Positions 2,040-6,639 of a stretch of DNA of 7,176 bases are shown here, in pieces; position 1 is the stretch's first letter, and each line of letters starts with the position of its first letter. The notes below the pieces were generated by a model. The model was not told the DNA's origin and did no database searches. It worked only from the letters and a program-made list of their open reading frames with translations. Source of the DNA: Escherichia coli (GTDB lineage: Bacteria > Pseudomonadota > Gammaproteobacteria > Enterobacterales > Enterobacteriaceae); the NCBI RefSeq assembly GCF_965641715.1, contig NZ_OZ282458.1. One strand, given 5' to 3'. The position numbers and the translations under genes were made by a program.

Positions 2040-2280
2040 CCCGCTCCGGTCCCCGTCTTCTTCGCTTCCGAAAGCATGAAAAAAATCCGTTTCAGCAGTC
2101 TCTGGCTGGCAATTCCTGCGTGATTCACATGGCTGCATAGCTATGCATGTGGTTAAAATTTACCGGGTGCGATCGCGGCAGTTTTTCGGGTGGTTTGTTG
2201 CCATTTTTACCTGTCTGCTGCCGTGATCGCACCGAACGCGTTTCTGCGGTGCGGGCAACGGATGTTATGGTAAATACAAT
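2040..2280. promoter_or_regulatory. cer: cer-like plasmid multimer-resolution site (accessory sequences plus XerC/XerD core)
   Basis: Segment cgcggcagtttttcgggtggtttgttgccatttttacctgtctgctgccgtgatcgc...gaacgcgttt...gcggtgcg...ttatggtaaat closely matches recalled ColE1 cer. Perfect palindrome tgcatagctatgca at 2134-2147 lies about 110 bp upstream of the core, where ArgR binds in cer. Confidence 0.75.
2248..2275. promoter_or_regulatory. XerC/XerD recombination core: XerC arm GGTGCGGGCAA, 6-bp central region CGGATG, XerD arm TTATGGTAAAT
   Basis: XerD arm is identical to the ColE1 cer/dif-type consensus TTATGGTAAAT. XerC arm differs from cer (GGTGCGTACAA) at two positions. Central region is 6 bp rather than the 8 bp of ColE1 cer. 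Confidence 0.7.
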
Positions 2281-2332: not shown

Positions 2333-2539
2333 TCAACCTTCAGCATCTAACTTGTCTATCGCTTTTTTATTGCGCCGATAGGTAGCCATTAGTTCACCAT
2401 CGCCTGATTGTAAGTCACGACCTGCTTGCTCAGCATAGGTATCGTTTACAGTCTTAGCGCCTTTTTTATAGGCCTTTTTAACATCATCAAATCCGGCTTG
2501 GATGACTTCTTTCGGCTTTTCTTGAGGTAATTTAGCCAT
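2333..2539 (-). CDS. Hypothetical 68-aa protein, second gene of a two-gene operon; function unknown
   Basis: ORF MAKLPQEKPKEVIQAGFDDVKKAYKKGAKTVNDTYAEQAGRDLQSGDGELMATYRRNKKAIDKLDAEG. ATG at 2539 preceded by GAGGA with 8-nt spacing. Start overlaps the upstream gene's stop (ATGGCTAA, 8-bp overlap), implying translational coupling. AT-rich like the neighbouring R-M genes. Confidence 0.6.
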   Translation of the reverse strand: MAKLPQEKPKEVIQAGFDDVKKAYKKGAKTVNDTYAEQAGRDLQSGDGELMATYRRNKKAIDKLDAEG

Positions 2540-2915
2540 GCTGTGAATCCTCTATAAGGTTGATTATTTTTCCAACAGATAAGACGGCATCTTCTGTGTC
2601 GCTGATTTTATGATTTATCCAACCGTCCTCTATCTTTAATTTGTTCACTACTCCTAATGTAAAAACAACCTTTTTTTCAGGAAAGAAAATTGCAAAGGTT
2701 CTACTTTTCTCTTTCCAATCAGAGGGCGGCGTCGAACGGAACGCTACATTCCTCGATTTAAGTATCGCTTTGATTTTACTAATTAATTCTTTTTTTTGTT
2801 TATTGCTGAGATTTTTGACGAACCCTTTGCTGAGATTGTCTGTGTAATCATCAAAAGAAATATCAACTGGTTTGTTTTTTTGTTTTTTATCAGATAGATG
2901 AACAATGTTTGACAC
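2532..2915 (-). CDS. Hypothetical 127-aa lysine-rich protein, first gene of the two-gene operon; function unknown
   Basis: ORF ...SNIVHLSDKKQKNKPVDISFDDYTDNLSKGFVKNLSNKQKKELISKIKAILKSRNVAFRSTPPSDWKEKSRTFAIFFPEKKVVFTLGVVNKLKIEDGWINHKISDTEDAVLSVGKIINLIEDSQHG. Initiation codon at 2915 is GTG, preceded by AGGA with 6-nt spacing. No motif I recognise. Confidence 0.6.
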   Translation of the reverse strand: MSNIVHLSDKKQKNKPVDISFDDYTDNLSKGFVKNLSNKQKKELISKIKAILKSRNVAFRSTPPSDWKEKSRTFAIFFPEKKVVFTLGVVNKLKIEDGWINHKISDTEDAVLSVGKIINLIEDSQHG

Positions 2916-3059: not shown

Positions 3060-3097
3060 GGGGTCTGAAGTCCAATGGAACGAAAACGTACGTTAGT
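3060..3097 (+). repeat. Left terminal inverted repeat, Tn3 family
   Basis: GGGGTCTGAAGTCCAATGGAACGAAAACGTACGTTAGT matches the Tn3 right-end IR recalled from pBR322/pUC (GGGGTCTGACGCTCAGTGGAACGAAAACTCACGTTAAG) at about 30 of 38 positions, and is closer to the gamma-delta/Tn1000-type end as I recall it. Confidence 0.8.
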
Positions 3098-3230
3098 GAA
3101 GTAACTGTATGATATATCAAGACATAATAGACATAGAAAAACGCCATCAAAACGGTGTCTTTTTAATCGAAAATTGGCACTTAACGGACGGCATTGTCTA
3201 CTAATCGATTTTTAAGACGATAATTTTCCT

Positions 3231-3268
3231 CTTACCGTACATTTTCGTACGGTTGGCCCTCAAACCCC
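3231..3268 (-). repeat. Right terminal inverted repeat, Tn3 family
   Basis: Reverse complement of 3231-3268 is GGGGTTTGAGGGCCAACCGTACGAAAATGTACGGTAAG, matching the left IR at 28 of 38 positions including the GGGG terminus and the ACGAAAA core. Confidence 0.8.
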
Positions 3269-3273: not shown

Positions 3274-3519
3274 CAATGTAATGACCGTCGAAATTGCCTT
3301 TACGGGCATGAAGCAACCAGGAGCAATCATTGGCAAAGGTAACTAGAGTTCAATGCATGGTAATCATTTTTGAGCTTGTGATGCATAGAGTTGGTTGCTG
3401 TTCCATTGCGTCTCAAACTCCGTCAAGATGCTCGCCGTAAAAGCGAGCATGTCTAGTATGCCTGTTCCGCTACTGATTTTTGATGGGCGAATTCAGGGCT
3501 GGCTAGCCACCAAGAAAAA

Positions 3520-4581
3520 TTACTTTATTTCATCAAACAGGTGAGATGCAGTATAATAAACGCTTTGATCAAAGCGTCTCTCTGGGCTTAATTTATTTTG
3601 CCCGCCATTTAAAATTATTTCTTTTAATACTGATGGTGGAAGGATGGGTTTTGTTCTTCTTGGGTGATCCATATAAGCTTTTGTTATTTTTCCGTTTAGC
3701 GAGAACTCTTTATCACTTTGATATCCAAAGTTCATCTCAGTATAAATTCTATTGATGTTTGTCTTGTTTTTGCTCGCAATTTCATACACCATTCTGGCGA
3801 GTCTGGCTGATGATCTCATTAGTCTGCTGGCAGATGAATTGTTATATGAGGATCTATCAATAAAGGTTCGACACAAAGCAAAATCACTCCAGATGAATAT
3901 GTCAAAGGCATTTTGATCTAATATTGGGCTCTTGCCTTTTGTTTTCCATAATGGTTGCATTAAAAAAGGTTTCTGGTAATCAAGAAAATTTTCTTGGAAA
4001 GTGTTTAGGCAATTTAATATATTTTCTTTCTTTGAAAGAACTTCAGTTTCATTCCCCCAGTGCTGTATGCTTTCGCATGTGGATTCAAATATTTTTCTTA
4101 TTTCATGGAATTTATCGCTGCAAGAGTGCATTATGCCAAGGGCACAATAAGAAGTGCTTGCAGGTCTTATTACAATCTCTGAACTCCATTCGCTCTCGTT
4201 TTCTTTATATGTCGTGCTATCTGGGAGTACGGTTAATTTTATTTCTAGTGCTTTTAAAAAACTATTGTTTCCTTTTATAACTAGATCTATTCCTTTTATG
4301 TCATCATAAGCATACTGTTGGTATGGTTCATATTTTTTCTCAAATTGAAATTCAAGATCACTATTTTTTAATGTTGTGTTAAAAACGAAGTCAAAAGATA
4401 CTTCTTTGGCATGCACTTTTAAATCCTTATCTAAATAAAGATAAATCGGATTCATTTTGTTGTCTCTCATATAACATGCTAGAGAGGTGGGAAAAGAACT
4501 GTTAAATTGGTTCTTTCCCCACAGATCGCTCTCTTTCCTGTTGGTGTTTTTTAAACCATAAAGAGATTCTATTTTGCTCAC
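3520..4581 (-). CDS. Putative Type II restriction endonuclease, PD-(D/E)xK-like
   Basis: 353-aa ORF divergent from the C5-methyltransferase gene. GTG start at 4581 preceded by AGGAG with 6-nt spacing. Translation contains D99 (GIDLVIK) then 13 residues to E113-I-K115 (ALEIKL), the spacing expected for a PD-(D/E)xK catalytic core. AT-rich. No match recalled to a named enzyme. Confidence is about 0.85 that it is a real gene, about 0.55 for the function. Confidence 0.6.
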   Translation of the reverse strand: MSKIESLYGLKNTNRKESDLWGKNQFNSSFPTSLACYMRDNKMNPIYLYLDKDLKVHAKEVSFDFVFNTTLKNSDLEFQFEKKYEPYQQYAYDDIKGIDLVIKGNNSFLKALEIKLTVLPDSTTYKENESEWSSEIVIRPASTSYCALGIMHSCSDKFHEIRKIFESTCESIQHWGNETEVLSKKENILNCLNTFQENFLDYQKPFLMQPLWKTKGKSPILDQNAFDIFIWSDFALCRTFIDRSSYNNSSASRLMRSSARLARMVYEIASKNKTNINRIYTEMNFGYQSDKEFSLNGKITKAYMDHPRRTKPILPPSVLKEIILNGGQNKLSPERRFDQSVYYTASHLFDEIK

Positions 4582-4668: not shown

Positions 4669-5826
4669 ATGAGAATAATTGATCTTTTTAGTGGGTGTGG
4701 GGGGTTATCCCTAGGCTTTTTGAAGGGGGGGTTTGATGTTGTAGGTGCTTATGATTTCTGGGATCCTGCTATTGAATGTTACAGAGATAATTTTAGCCAT
4801 CCGATAAAAAAACTAGATTTGAGCAATGTTGATGATGTGGTGAGGGAGCTTAAAGATATAGACTTCGATATGATTATTGGAGGGCCTCCTTGCCAAGACT
4901 TCAGTCATGCAGGTTTAAGAATTGAAGGTGCTAGAGCTAACTTAACTCGCTCATTTTCAGAAATTATAAAAAGAATAAAGCCAAAGTGGTTTGTGATGGA
5001 AAATGTAGATCGGGCATTAAGAAGTGGTGCCTATTTAGAAGCTCGAGGAATCTTTAAAGAATCAGGGTATGGGTTAACAGAAATTGTTTTGGATGCCAGT
5101 AAGTGTGGTGTTCCGCAAAAAAGAAAAAGATTATTTGTAATTGGAAAGCTTGACGTGAGGGATGGTTTTATCCTTAACGAAGTGATGTGCGGGATATCGA
5201 AAGATAGTATGACAGTTAGAAATTATCTTGGTGATTCATTGGGGATTGAGTATTATTACAGACATCCGAGAAATTATAACAGAAGGGCTATTTTCTCTAT
5301 TGATGAACCTGCGCCAACAGTAAGAGGGGTTAATAGACCGATACCTGATGGATATTTAGGGCATGCAGGCGATCCTGTCAGTATTTCTGAGAATGTAAGG
5401 CCATTAACAACCTTTGAAAGAGCAAGATTGCAAACATTTCCTGAAGACTTTAAATTTAAAGGTGCAAAAACAAATTTGGAGCAAATGATAGGTAATGCTG
5501 TTCCGGTTGAGTTAGCAAAATATGTTGCGGTGACAATCATGGAGTATGAAAAAAAACAAGTAAAAGGTATTTATGATAAAGAAGGCTTTAGGGCGTGGTT
5601 GCTGAATGAAAAGAAACTAACAAAAAGAACCTCTAGCGATATTATATCTAGATGTTGCAGAGGTGTTTCATTTTTTGATTCAGAGGGGGTGGATTTTTAT
5701 AACTGTGAAATAGATGAAATTATTATGAAACTGGAAAGGCTTGAATCGTTTGTCAGGCTTGGGGTTAGCCTGAAGTCTCAGTTAAGAAGGGCTTTTAAAT
5801 TATATTACGAATATTGTCGAAGGTAA
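4669..5826 (+). CDS. DNA (cytosine-5)-methyltransferase with a C-terminal extension of about 95 aa
   Basis: All canonical C5-MTase motifs in order: motif I FSGCGG (aa 7-12), motif IV GGPPCQDFS (catalytic Cys75), motif VI ENV (aa 111-113), motif VIII QKRKR (aa 150-154), short target-recognition region, motif IX RPLTTFERARLQTFPEDF, motif X GNAVPVELAKYVA. About 95 further residues follow motif X. Confidence 0.92.
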   Translation: MRIIDLFSGCGGLSLGFLKGGFDVVGAYDFWDPAIECYRDNFSHPIKKLDLSNVDDVVRELKDIDFDMIIGGPPCQDFSHAGLRIEGARANLTRSFSEIIKRIKPKWFVMENVDRALRSGAYLEARGIFKESGYGLTEIVLDASKCGVPQKRKRLFVIGKLDVRDGFILNEVMCGISKDSMTVRNYLGDSLGIEYYYRHPRNYNRRAIFSIDEPAPTVRGVNRPIPDGYLGHAGDPVSISENVRPLTTFERARLQTFPEDFKFKGAKTNLEQMIGNAVPVELAKYVAVTIMEYEKKQVKGIYDKEGFRAWLLNEKKLTKRTSSDIISRCCRGVSFFDSEGVDFYNCEIDEIIMKLERLESFVRLGVSLKSQLRRAFKLYYEYCRR

Positions 5827-5886
5827 TAAATACGAATTTATGTCTCTCAGGGGAGGGGGAGGGGATAAAAAGATCAAAGGATCCTC

Positions 5887-5915
5887 TTGTGATCCTTTTT
5901 TTCTGCGCGTAATCT
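5887..5915 (+). promoter_or_regulatory. RNAII (primer) promoter: -35 TTGTGA (5887-5892), 17-bp spacer, -10 TAATCT (5910-5915)
   Basis: Collinear with the pMB1/ColE1 RNAII promoter (cttcTTGAGAtcc...cgTAATCTgctgcttGcaaac). Predicted start at G5923. Confidence 0.7.
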
Positions 5916-5922
5916 GCTGCCT

Positions 5923-6470
5923 GTAAACAAAAAAACCACCGCTACCAACGGTGGTTTGTTTGCCGGAATCTAGAGCTACCAACTCTTTCTTCCGAAGGTA
6001 ACTGGCTTGGTGGAGCACAGATACCAAATACTGTCCTTCTAGTGTAGCCGCAGTTAGGCCACCACTTCAAGAACTCTTAATATCTCAATCCACCTTGTCC
6101 AGTTACCAGTGGCTGCTGCCAGTGGCGCTTTGTCGTGTCTTACCGGGTTGGACTCAAGACGATAGTTACCGGATAAGGCGCAGCGGTCGGGCTGAACGGG
6201 GGGTTCGTGCACACAGCCCAGCTTGGAGCGAACGACCTACACCGAACTGAGATACCAACAGCGTGAGCTATGAGAAAGCGCCACGCTTCCCGAAGGGAGA
6301 AAGGCGGACAGGTATCCGGTAAGCGGCAGGGTCGGAACAGGAGAGCGCACGAGGGAGCTTCCAGGGGGAAACGCCTGGTATCTTTAAGTCCTGTCGGGTT
6401 TCGCCACCTCTGACTTGAGCGTCGATTTTTGTGATGCTCGTCAGGGGGGCGGAGCCTATGGAAAAACGCC
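5923..6470 (+). ncRNA. RNAII replication primer precursor of the ColE1-type replicon (3' end approximate)
   Basis: Long near-identity to the pMB1/pUC ori sequence (GTAAACAAAAAAACCACCGCTACC...GGGGAAACGCCTGGTATCTTTA...GGAGCCTATGGAAAAACGCCAGC) with clustered substitutions in the 5' stem-loops. Confidence 0.8.
5925..6034 (-). ncRNA. RNAI antisense copy-number control RNA (about 108 nt)
   Basis: Reverse complement begins ACAGTATTTGGTATCTGTGCTCCACCAAGCCAGTTACC... and ends at the GCGGTGGTTTTTTTGTTTAC terminator, as in pMB1 RNAI. Promoter on the minus strand: -35 TTGAAG and -10 TACACT within 6035-6070. Confidence 0.8.
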
Positions 6471-6480
6471 AGCGGCGTGG
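6440..6480 (+). other. Approximate replication origin (RNAII-to-DNA transition) of the ColE1-type replicon
   Basis: Position inferred by collinearity with the pBR322 origin relative to rop and the conserved ggagcctatggaaaaacgccagc block. Exact nucleotide not determinable here. Confidence 0.5.
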
Positions 6481-6639
6481 CCTTCTCTGGGTTCTTGTTT
6501 TTTGCTCACATGTTTCTTTTGGTGTTATCCCCTGATTCTGTGGATAACCGCATTACCGTCTTTGAGTGAGCTGATACCGCTCGCCGCAGCCGAACGACCG
6601 AGCGTAGCGAGTCAGTGAGCGAGGAAGCGGAAGAGCGTC

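Follow-up and report, generated by a model that had tools for sequence, protein, structure and literature searches.

What lies between the accessory genes of a ColE1-type plasmid and the promoter of RNAII, and does the sequence at that border act on either side? The question is raised by an unusual G-rich run located between the last gene of a restriction–modification (R-M) cargo and the RNAII promoter in the window analysed in this study (the whole stretch of DNA, 7,176 bp), which is an essentially complete small mobilizable ColE1-type plasmid of the pEC34B type. A previous sequence-only reading of the window had offered two explanations for this run: a scar of the cargo junction, or an element that may influence RNAII promoter activity and with it copy number.

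The plasmid belongs to a well-known and widespread family. Twenty-one PLSDB plasmids match the window over at least 80% of its length with 97–99% identity, including pEC34B (NC_019078, 97% of the window) and CP061256 (7,178 bp, full length). The backbone, with its mbe/mob and rop genes, has about 55% GC compared with about 35% for the AT-rich cargo, which is bounded by a cer-like Xer site on the left and the RNAII promoter on the right. Besides a divergent R-M gene pair, the cargo holds two further small ORFs without a Pfam match. Its main features are:

2248-2275, + strand: cer-like XerC/XerD core GGTGCGGGCAA-cggatg-TTATGGTAAAT at the left cargo junction, read from the sequence.
3520-4581, - strand: HindVP-family restriction endonuclease gene, divergent from M (Pfam PF09519, E 7e-102).
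4669-5826, + strand: C5 cytosine DNA methyltransferase gene (M), the last cargo gene (Pfam PF00145, DNA_methylase, E 7e-63).

The core at 2248-2275 is presumably a Xer site, an identity we assign from its resemblance to the ColE1 cer core; a strict ColE1 cer pattern (8-nt central region, at most 3 mismatches) found no match. Pairwise BLAST to sister plasmids with other cargo, namely L002 (EcoRI), L003 (DUF3800) and L004 (colicin-Z-like), placed the left limit of homology at 2275/2276, exactly the end of the XerD arm. A cargo end at a cer-like core agrees with published cer-recombination proposals, a passage of PMC8683028 (citing Zakharova 2002) putting recombination of ColE1-type modules at cer and oriT.

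On the right, M reads toward the RNAII promoter, and its stop codon (TAA, 5824-5826) is directly followed by a second TAA. The features from there to RNAI are:

5827-5866, + strand: cargo-side junction segment, foreign to other ColE1 backbones and probably the 3′ untranslated region (3′-UTR) of the M transcript.
5843-5858, + strand: possible small RNA hairpin in the M transcript, UCUCUC (5843-5848) with GAGGGG (5853-5858), predicted as a ViennaRNA minimum free energy (MFE) fold.
5850-5864, + strand: G-rich homopurine tract GGGGAGGGGGAGGGG, 15 nt, an exact single match.
5866-5875, + strand: A-tract TAAAAAGATC, the first conserved ColE1 backbone bases (about -57 to -48), common to 30 junction types.
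5876-5898, both strands: bidirectional intrinsic-terminator-like hairpin, from a terminator scan.
5887-5915, + strand: RNAII promoter, with -35 TTGTGA (5887-5892), a 17-bp spacer and -10 TAATCT (5910-5915), position transferred.
5927-6032, - strand: RNAI antisense copy-number regulator (Rfam RF00106, 65.9 bits, E 8.8e-11).

A BLAST search of 5800-5900 against the 72,556 plasmids of PLSDB matched 1,574 records, nearly all of whose alignments begin at query position 68-69, corresponding to 5867-5868 of the window; pairwise BLAST to L002 and L004 gave the same right boundary (5867/5868). The whole query was covered in only 21 records; every one of these carries the same R-M cargo, and 20 are 100% identical to the query. 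The sequence-only reading had proposed that homology to the backbone resumes at about 5866 after some 40 bp of non-backbone DNA, and the roughly 1,500 PLSDB alignments that begin at 5867/5868 bear this out. Thirty distinct junction types were assembled from loci in PLSDB, 51 contigs of metagenomes and a small number of genome contigs; in all of them the conserved block opens at the A-tract, as AAAAGAT(C/T)(A/C)AAGGATC.

Immediately downstream, the arms of the terminator-like hairpin (AAAGGATC, 5876-5883, and GATCCTTT, 5891-5898) enclose the loop CTCTTGT and lead into a T7 run (5896-5902), so that the hairpin overlaps the RNAII -35 and has the A-tract as its upstream flank. This location is the end of the colicin operon in colicin plasmids, where the lysis-gene TAG abuts the A-tract (…TCT GAA CTG ACG GGG ATC GCG GTT CAG TAG/AAAAGATCA at the second origin of L039; here and below, a slash marks the boundary). 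The hairpin at 5876-5898 is likely to be the terminator of the M transcript, and of whatever cargo operon faces the replicon, as predicted from its sequence. Given the orientation of M and the position of this terminator, we infer that 5827-5866 is the 3′-UTR of M.

The start of RNAII was positioned from the annotation of pSNC3-Kan (BamHI site at nt 83-88, RNA II from nt 127; PMC9282650), which, transferred to GGATCC at 5879-5884 of the window, gives an RNAII +1 at about 5923, consistent with the location of RNAI. A simple promoter scan did not flag this promoter, in which 8 of 12 hexamer positions match. The two hexamers listed above are those that we take to be the RNAII -35 and -10 from established ColE1/pMB1 knowledge; TTGTGA is a weaker -35 variant than TTGAGA.

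The tract was recovered exactly where the sequence-only reading had seen it, between the M stop and the RNAII promoter, as a single match at 5850-5864; matches to GGGGAGGGGGAGGGG with at most 2 mismatches are expected 0.03 times per dinucleotide shuffle (6 of 200 shuffles gave one). It spans -73 to -59 relative to RNAII +1, ending 22 bp upstream of the -35 hexamer, and the functional promoter (the -35, the -10 and the upstream-element zone at -40 to -60) does not account for it. Neither does the conserved ColE1 backbone, as the tract lies upstream of 5866-5868 and is present with this cargo only, nor an intrinsic terminator, as 12 nt separate it from the stem downstream and A's, not T's, come directly after it. 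RNAII appears to need no specific sequence upstream of -57, because conservation stops there and because lysis-gene codons precede that point in colicin plasmids. Judged by conservation, the tract is outside everything that is conserved for RNAII, being neither backbone, promoter nor terminator.

The makeup of the tract is simple, reading as (GGGGAG)x2 + GGG, and it forms a perfect 15-nt homopurine mirror repeat (GGGGAGG-G-GGAGGGG, arms of 7 nt). With H-DNA motifs it shares this mirror symmetry, and by sequence it qualifies as one, but its 7-nt arms are short for stable H-DNA. A canonical G-quadruplex (four G3+ runs with loops of 1-7 nt) is absent, the tract having three runs only (G4, G5, G4), and the G-quadruplex option of ViennaRNA proposed only a two-tetrad form. 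Rfam returned no match at the tract. The predicted hairpin at 5843-5858 would form on the sense strand only, since its pairing depends on G-U pairs, and its invariant sequence offers no covariation. One MFE fold paired the tract with the U-run, as an anti-terminator would; we judged this kinetically implausible on account of its seven G-U pairs and 33-nt loop and also because the U-tract is still inside RNA polymerase at termination.

The exact tract occurs with this R-M cargo only, in 21 of 21 PLSDB records, 39 E. coli genomes and 5 metagenome contigs, and is invariant in more than 70 copies. The 39 genomes (from 5,426 complete E. coli genomes) always have the junction on plasmids, and 38 copies are identical, the one variant carrying an extra T in GATTCAAAGG, outside the tract. 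The exact M protein was found in 5,506 index blocks of a public assembly collection, and all ten of the contexts listed adjoin a ColE1 origin and rop. Each of the ten matches the window at 100% over 5800-5960 and has a cargo that is about 99.8% identical; the sequences stay near the window until about 6470 (oriV) and are strongly diverged beyond, with rop/mob parts differing. Since 5800-5960 is identical across ten contexts with diverged rop/mob, the junction probably had a single origin.

Other comparisons tie the junction to the cargo side. In a tree of replicons based on their first 650 bp, the origin clade of the window (95.6-97.5% identity) has five upstream junction types, and the same upstream junction types recur on distant origin lineages. 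Metagenome contig L081 combines the same M-tract-hairpin block with a different RNAI/RNAII specificity region, and this chimaera therefore implies a crossover between the -10 and the RNAII start. As far as these alignments tell, the tract travels with the cargo side and not with the origin, and the junction arose once and is now clonal. The invariance of the tract is uninformative on selection, the family being young and its cargo about 99.8% identical. As a side observation, crossovers fall within the promoter segment of some 40 bp and immediately beyond oriV.

With moderate confidence, we read the tract as a clonal cargo-side junction and 3′-UTR spacer that is passive and lineage-specific. 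Transcripts of M would run through it and end at the hairpin at 5876-5898, while RNAII initiation would need only the conserved block from about -57 downstream; the A-tract/hairpin/T-run element would most likely end cargo transcription and at the same time carry the RNAII -35. The tract itself would have arisen once, when the AT-rich R-M cassette joined next to the terminator, with tandem duplication of GGGGAG as a possible source; its later inheritance, together with the cargo, has left it unchanged. Within the comparisons made here, nothing supports control of the RNAII promoter or of copy number by the tract.

Read as a spacer, the locus is one more cargo/backbone junction of the usual kind, within a well-known plasmid family, and leaves the picture of ColE1 replication control unchanged. 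ColE1/pMB1 and the R-M carriers pECL18/pKPN2, pEC156 and the EcoRI plasmids likewise hold their cargo between a cer-like Xer site and the RNAII promoter. In ColE1-type cargo plasmids, as in the window, the final gene of the cargo points the same way as RNAII and stops at the -35-overlapping hairpin, and modules are swapped between backbones, as in the family of the window. What differs is the end of the module, which is the 15-nt G-rich tract in the window, the lysis-gene stop in colicin plasmids and a lysis-gene remnant in EcoRI/pMB1 plasmids. The gain is descriptive: the A-tract of a bidirectional terminator overlapping the RNAII -35 is the precise starting point of the replicon block, and cargo modules have cer as their limit on one side and a conserved terminator/promoter block on the other.

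Several specific sources for the junction were considered. A repeat search found no target-site duplication or inverted repeat linking the cargo ends, and so no sign of a transposon-type scar at the right junction, and on reading the sequence no Xer-like core was seen near 5827-5866, the cer-like core being found on the left only. Neither other junction families nor the ends of colicin lysis genes resemble the segment 5827-5866 significantly.

Diverged homologues of the R-M pair show what the module looks like elsewhere. The nearest M homologues, 74% identical, are on L096, a Citrobacter plasmid of 5.8 kb, and on L100, a contig of 5.25 kb, and a further one, 68% identical, is on a Xenorhabdus Rep3 plasmid (L098). 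The divergent R/M arrangement is preserved in each, two of the three pairs lie directly upstream of a ColE1-type RNAII promoter or its 5′ stem-loop, and the G-rich tract after the M stop is absent in all three.

A passive spacer fits less well with what is found beside other cargo. Some PLSDB alignments extended into the tract (starts at 5850-5858) and exposed other G- or purine-rich tracts abutting the boundary:

L005/L006 type, about 6.76-6.86 kb, helicase cargo: CCTGGGGGGGGGATGAGGGGG/AAAAGATTC and CCTAGGGGGATGAGGGGG/.
L007/L010, relatives of the L005/L006 type: GGGAGTGGGAGTG/.
L066, relative of the L005/L006 type: GGGCGTGGCGTG/.
L009/L041 type, 6.04 kb, odd 89-nt tRNA and a hypothetical protein: GGAGAGGGGGGGG(G)TT/AAAAAAAAGATCA.
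L079, relative of L009: GAGAGGGGTTTTG/.

G-rich forms such as G9ATGAG5, G5ATGAG5 and GGAGAG8-9 thus occupy the same position beside unrelated cargo. This changes how the claims of the sequence-only reading stand. Its junction scar survives as junction sequence, with an exact tract that is cargo-specific, but not as a one-off, given the G-rich tracts at the same position elsewhere; and of the finding that it said would count against a scar, the same tract as ordinary backbone in plasmids lacking the R-M cargo, one half is seen: other G-rich tracts do occur at this position, but the exact tract was never found cargo-free. Several of these families have an SD-like GGAG and an ATG/GTG in frame with AAA-AGA-TCA-AAG-GAT-CCT…TAA. 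A small ORF reading into the hairpin was rejected all the same: neither frame nor spacing is consistent from family to family, the window lacks a start codon in the AAA-AGA-TCA… frame, and no SD precedes its ATG at 5840 (28-codon ORF, other frame).

The recurrence was quantified in the metagenome sample, using a scan pattern that lies wholly inside the conserved block and is therefore unbiased for upstream sequence. At least 11 G in 15 nt were found at the boundary in 3 of about 9 recognisable upstream families, the window family included, against a background of 0.27% of comparable windows over about 556 kb of these plasmids, many of which are the junction tracts themselves. The binomial chance of three such families from the 0.27% rate would be about 1e-6 to 1e-4 if they are independent. 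The three families may have converged or may share descent, and the TTTTGAATGG common to L005 and L009 hints that even their two families may be related. Purely accidental filler does not predict the recurrence in two other families, and the G-richness is on the RNAII-sense strand each time; we regard these recurrent tracts as a loose end of mild interest.

A selected boundary or insulator element, acting on transcripts that cross the border between cargo and replicon, would explain the recurrence and is the best placed of the alternatives, though we consider it unlikely. In one variant, G clusters in the non-template strand would stall cargo transcripts before the RNAII promoter through an R-loop or G-structure; in another, the C-rich antisense RNA would be a Rho loading site that stops RNAI read-through into the cargo in antisense. 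Such an element is favoured by the strong G tracts that end three unrelated-looking modules at the same position (the window, L005/L006 and L009/L041), by their G-richness on the RNAII-sense strand throughout, by transcription of the boundary-adjacent cargo toward the RNAII promoter in the cases examined, and by the association of the tract with cargo and not with the origin. Most ColE1 families lack any such tract, however, including the colicin, DMT-transporter, EcoRI and pMB1 types, as do the diverged R-M homologues. The length of the poly-G also varies within families (G5 vs G9, G8 vs G9, with only GAGAGGGG in one relative), which argues against a precise element; 15 nt is short for a rut site, three G3+ runs make no canonical G-quadruplex, and the three families may be related to one another, as noted for L005 and L009. 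If the recurrent tracts were selected, they would form a new, minor group of insulators separating accessory genes from the copy-number circuit, and could matter for vector design and for the tolerance of multicopy plasmids for new cargo. We are more sceptical of the general form of this idea, and would rank it below the remnant explanation that follows: that sense-strand G tracts outside the terminator/promoter block are a recurrent selected element insulating the RNAII promoter from cargo transcription and the cargo from RNAI read-through, via R-loop/G-structure or antisense Rho loading.

Somewhat less probable than an insulator in the narrower sense is that the tract is an old backbone remnant, derived from ancestral pre-terminator sequence and expanded by slippage or duplication. 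The source would be either a colicin lysis gene, at its 3′ end (…ACG GGG AGC…), or what precedes the boundary in L005-L010, and the true R-M insertion point would then lie to the left of the tract, at about 5836-5849. Non-colicin plasmids do keep remnants of lysis-gene 3′ ends ahead of the boundary, with p=0.009 for the EcoRI plasmid and p=0.03-0.04 for families G and H. BLAST to the closest origin relatives (L007, 96% identity) reaches into the tract as far as 5858, and L007/L010 have (GGGAGT)x2 where the window has (GGGGAG)x2; that extension is driven by G-richness itself, however. None of the similarities of the window is significant alone. Its best alignment to a lysis-gene 3′ end shares GA.GGGGAG only (p=0.58 by shuffling), leaving a lysis-gene origin of the tract unsupported. 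The TTTATG.CT common to the window and L005/L006 just before the G run scores 13, which about 2-12% of random windows reach, and this is not significant as a sign of common descent with the pre-boundary segment of L005/L006. The window also has a 12-mer, CTCTCAGGGGAG, that recurs ahead of the boundary in the common 5,631-bp DMT-transporter plasmids; as a sign of descent it is suggestive only.

The G-run of the ColE1 origin offers a further likeness. Masukata and Tomizawa (1990) are said to have found it to be involved in formation of the persistent RNAII-DNA hybrid, and in both the origin and the window tract a G-run is followed by an A-run a few bases on, on the RNAII-sense strand. Positions 5840-5862 of the window (ATGTCTC-TCAGGGGAGGGGGAG) resemble ATG-CTCGTCAGGGG-GGCGGAG in its own origin region (about 6433-6454), and the best same-strand match of the tract within the plasmid is the -20 region of the origin. 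Its score is below the shuffle mean for a search of the whole plasmid, and p is about 0.006 only when the origin is chosen post hoc; an origin mimic or remnant was rejected as evidence, not being significant in the blind whole-plasmid search. The tract differs from the origin G-run in having no RNAII-like upstream structure and in that its A-run belongs to the terminator. In the boldest version of the insulator idea, the tract would mimic the G-run/A-run of the origin, and read-through from the cargo would prime replication outside RNAI control.

The promoter-modulation idea of the sequence-only reading, widened to plasmid competitiveness, fared worst. It is bolstered by a precedent for cargo-side cis sequences acting on both promoters, that of pSW200, whose 41 direct repeats of 15 bp are bound by RNA polymerase and make the RNAI and RNAII promoters about 30% stronger, with an effect on plasmid competition and none on copy number (Lin, Fu and Liu 2013, PMC3628316). 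Like those repeats, the tract is a non-coding cis sequence outside the minimal ColE1 replicon that might influence RNAII transcription and plasmid competition; the pSW200 element, however, comprises 0.6 kb of -35-like repeats acting at a distance, compared with a single 15-nt homopurine run in which no TTGACA-like motif, and so no repeat of the pSW200 type, was found. The tract ends at -59, adjoins the A-rich -58 to -37 region and precedes the weaker -35; it might act as H-DNA just upstream of the place of an upstream (UP) element, or as a barrier between AT-rich cargo and promoter. We hold this very unlikely, in view of the unrelated sequences at this position in nearly all ColE1 plasmids, the end of family-wide conservation at -57/-56 (with lysis-gene codons there in colicin plasmids), the tract-free R-M homologues beside a ColE1 promoter and the shortness of 15 bp for H-DNA. 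A specific link between the tract and TTGTGA was rejected, as L062 and L052 have this -35 without a G tract.

A scan of genome contigs for the promoter/hairpin pattern, which proved poorly suited to a census, returned 20 loci; the nine inspected (L012-L019 and L028) have a pMB1/pUC-type junction in unrelated taxa, which looks like cloning-vector contamination.

Two ends of the cargo and its adjoining replicon can be placed by comparison with related plasmids, one on the left and a probable one near the origin:

Window 2248-2275, cer-like XerC/XerD core, GGTGCGGGCAA-cggatg-TTATGGTAAAT
Window ~6466-6490, onset of divergence between the window and the ten plasmid contexts that carry the restriction-modification (R-M) genes (L085-L094)

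On the left, homology to sister plasmids with EcoRI, DUF3800 or colicin-Z-like cargo stops at 2275/2276, the exact end of the XerD arm, which makes the cer-like Xer site the left cargo junction. On the right, the window and the ten R-M contexts differ at few positions up to approximately 6470, the position of oriV, and diverge sharply beyond it. This pattern suggests a recombination breakpoint at the origin or just past it, with the cargo and the RNAI/RNAII region seemingly inherited together as one block, separately from rop/mob.

Recombination within the replicon is also apparent in a metagenome contig (L081), where an identical block of methyltransferase stop codon, G-tract and hairpin is attached to a different RNAI/RNAII specificity region, an arrangement that shows a crossover between the -10 and the RNAII start, inside the conserved promoter segment of about 40 bp. 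In the EcoRI plasmid NZ_OW967970, at approximately 50 nt upstream of the RNAII-promoter boundary, a piece of a foreign RNAII 5′ stem-loop (AAACGAAAAAACCACCTCTCCTGGTGGTTTTTTCGAAGG) and the 10 nt that end a colicin lysis gene (GGTTCAGTAG) both precede the functional RNAII promoter; the two fragments appear to be remnants left by ColE1 replicons recombining with one another.

The cargo itself contains further elements beside the R-M genes:

Window 2333-2915, minus strand, a pair of short, overlapping ORFs (68 and 127 aa) in the stretch from cer to the R-M genes
Window 3060-3098, 38-mer resembling a Tn3-family terminal inverted repeat, GGGGTCTGAAGTCCAATGGAACGAAAACGTACGTTAGTG; some 320 bp from it, at 3400-3421, is a weakly matching inverted counterpart

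Both small ORFs are retained in every R-M plasmid context and returned no match in a Pfam search. The pair of inverted sequences looks like a transposon-end remnant or a miniature element within the cargo; positions 3060-3268 are missing from pEC34B, and a Tn3-family transposase is present in two relatives of 10,981 bp.

Other ColE1-type plasmids and one IncF plasmid carry different elements:

L009 1026-1114, L041 6918-7006 and L079 7714-7802 (ColE1-type plasmids), 89-nt tRNA gene, co-directional with RNAII
L084 ~1605-1735 and L083 3001-3130, segment of approximately 130 bp ending …CGCTCTCAGGGGAGTCAAATAGAG

The tRNA gene precedes the RNAII-promoter boundary by about 60 nt and is followed by a poly-G tract. 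ARAGORN calls it tRNA-Lys with anticodon CTT and the Rfam tRNA model matches it at 41.6 bits. Its 89 nt far exceed the length of an ordinary tRNA-Lys; length and sequence together point to a long variable arm. The ~130-bp segment, which the common DMT-transporter plasmids of ColE1 type (5,631 bp) share at 94.6% identity with the IncF plasmid pWS3294A_133 (134 kb), is without annotation or Rfam match, and contains a 12-mer in common with the G-rich tract of the window (5850-5864).

By eye, almost all upstream families have GGAG or GGGAG on the upstream side of the conserved boundary, no more than about 35 nt from it. Several families have an ATG or GTG after this motif, in frame with a 15-codon ORF that crosses the hairpin and stops at a TAA inside the -10; frames and spacings are inconsistent across families, and the window has no start codon in the frame of this ORF. 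The ends of colicin lysis genes, also viewed by eye, likewise bear the motif (ACG GGG AGC) upstream of the boundary.
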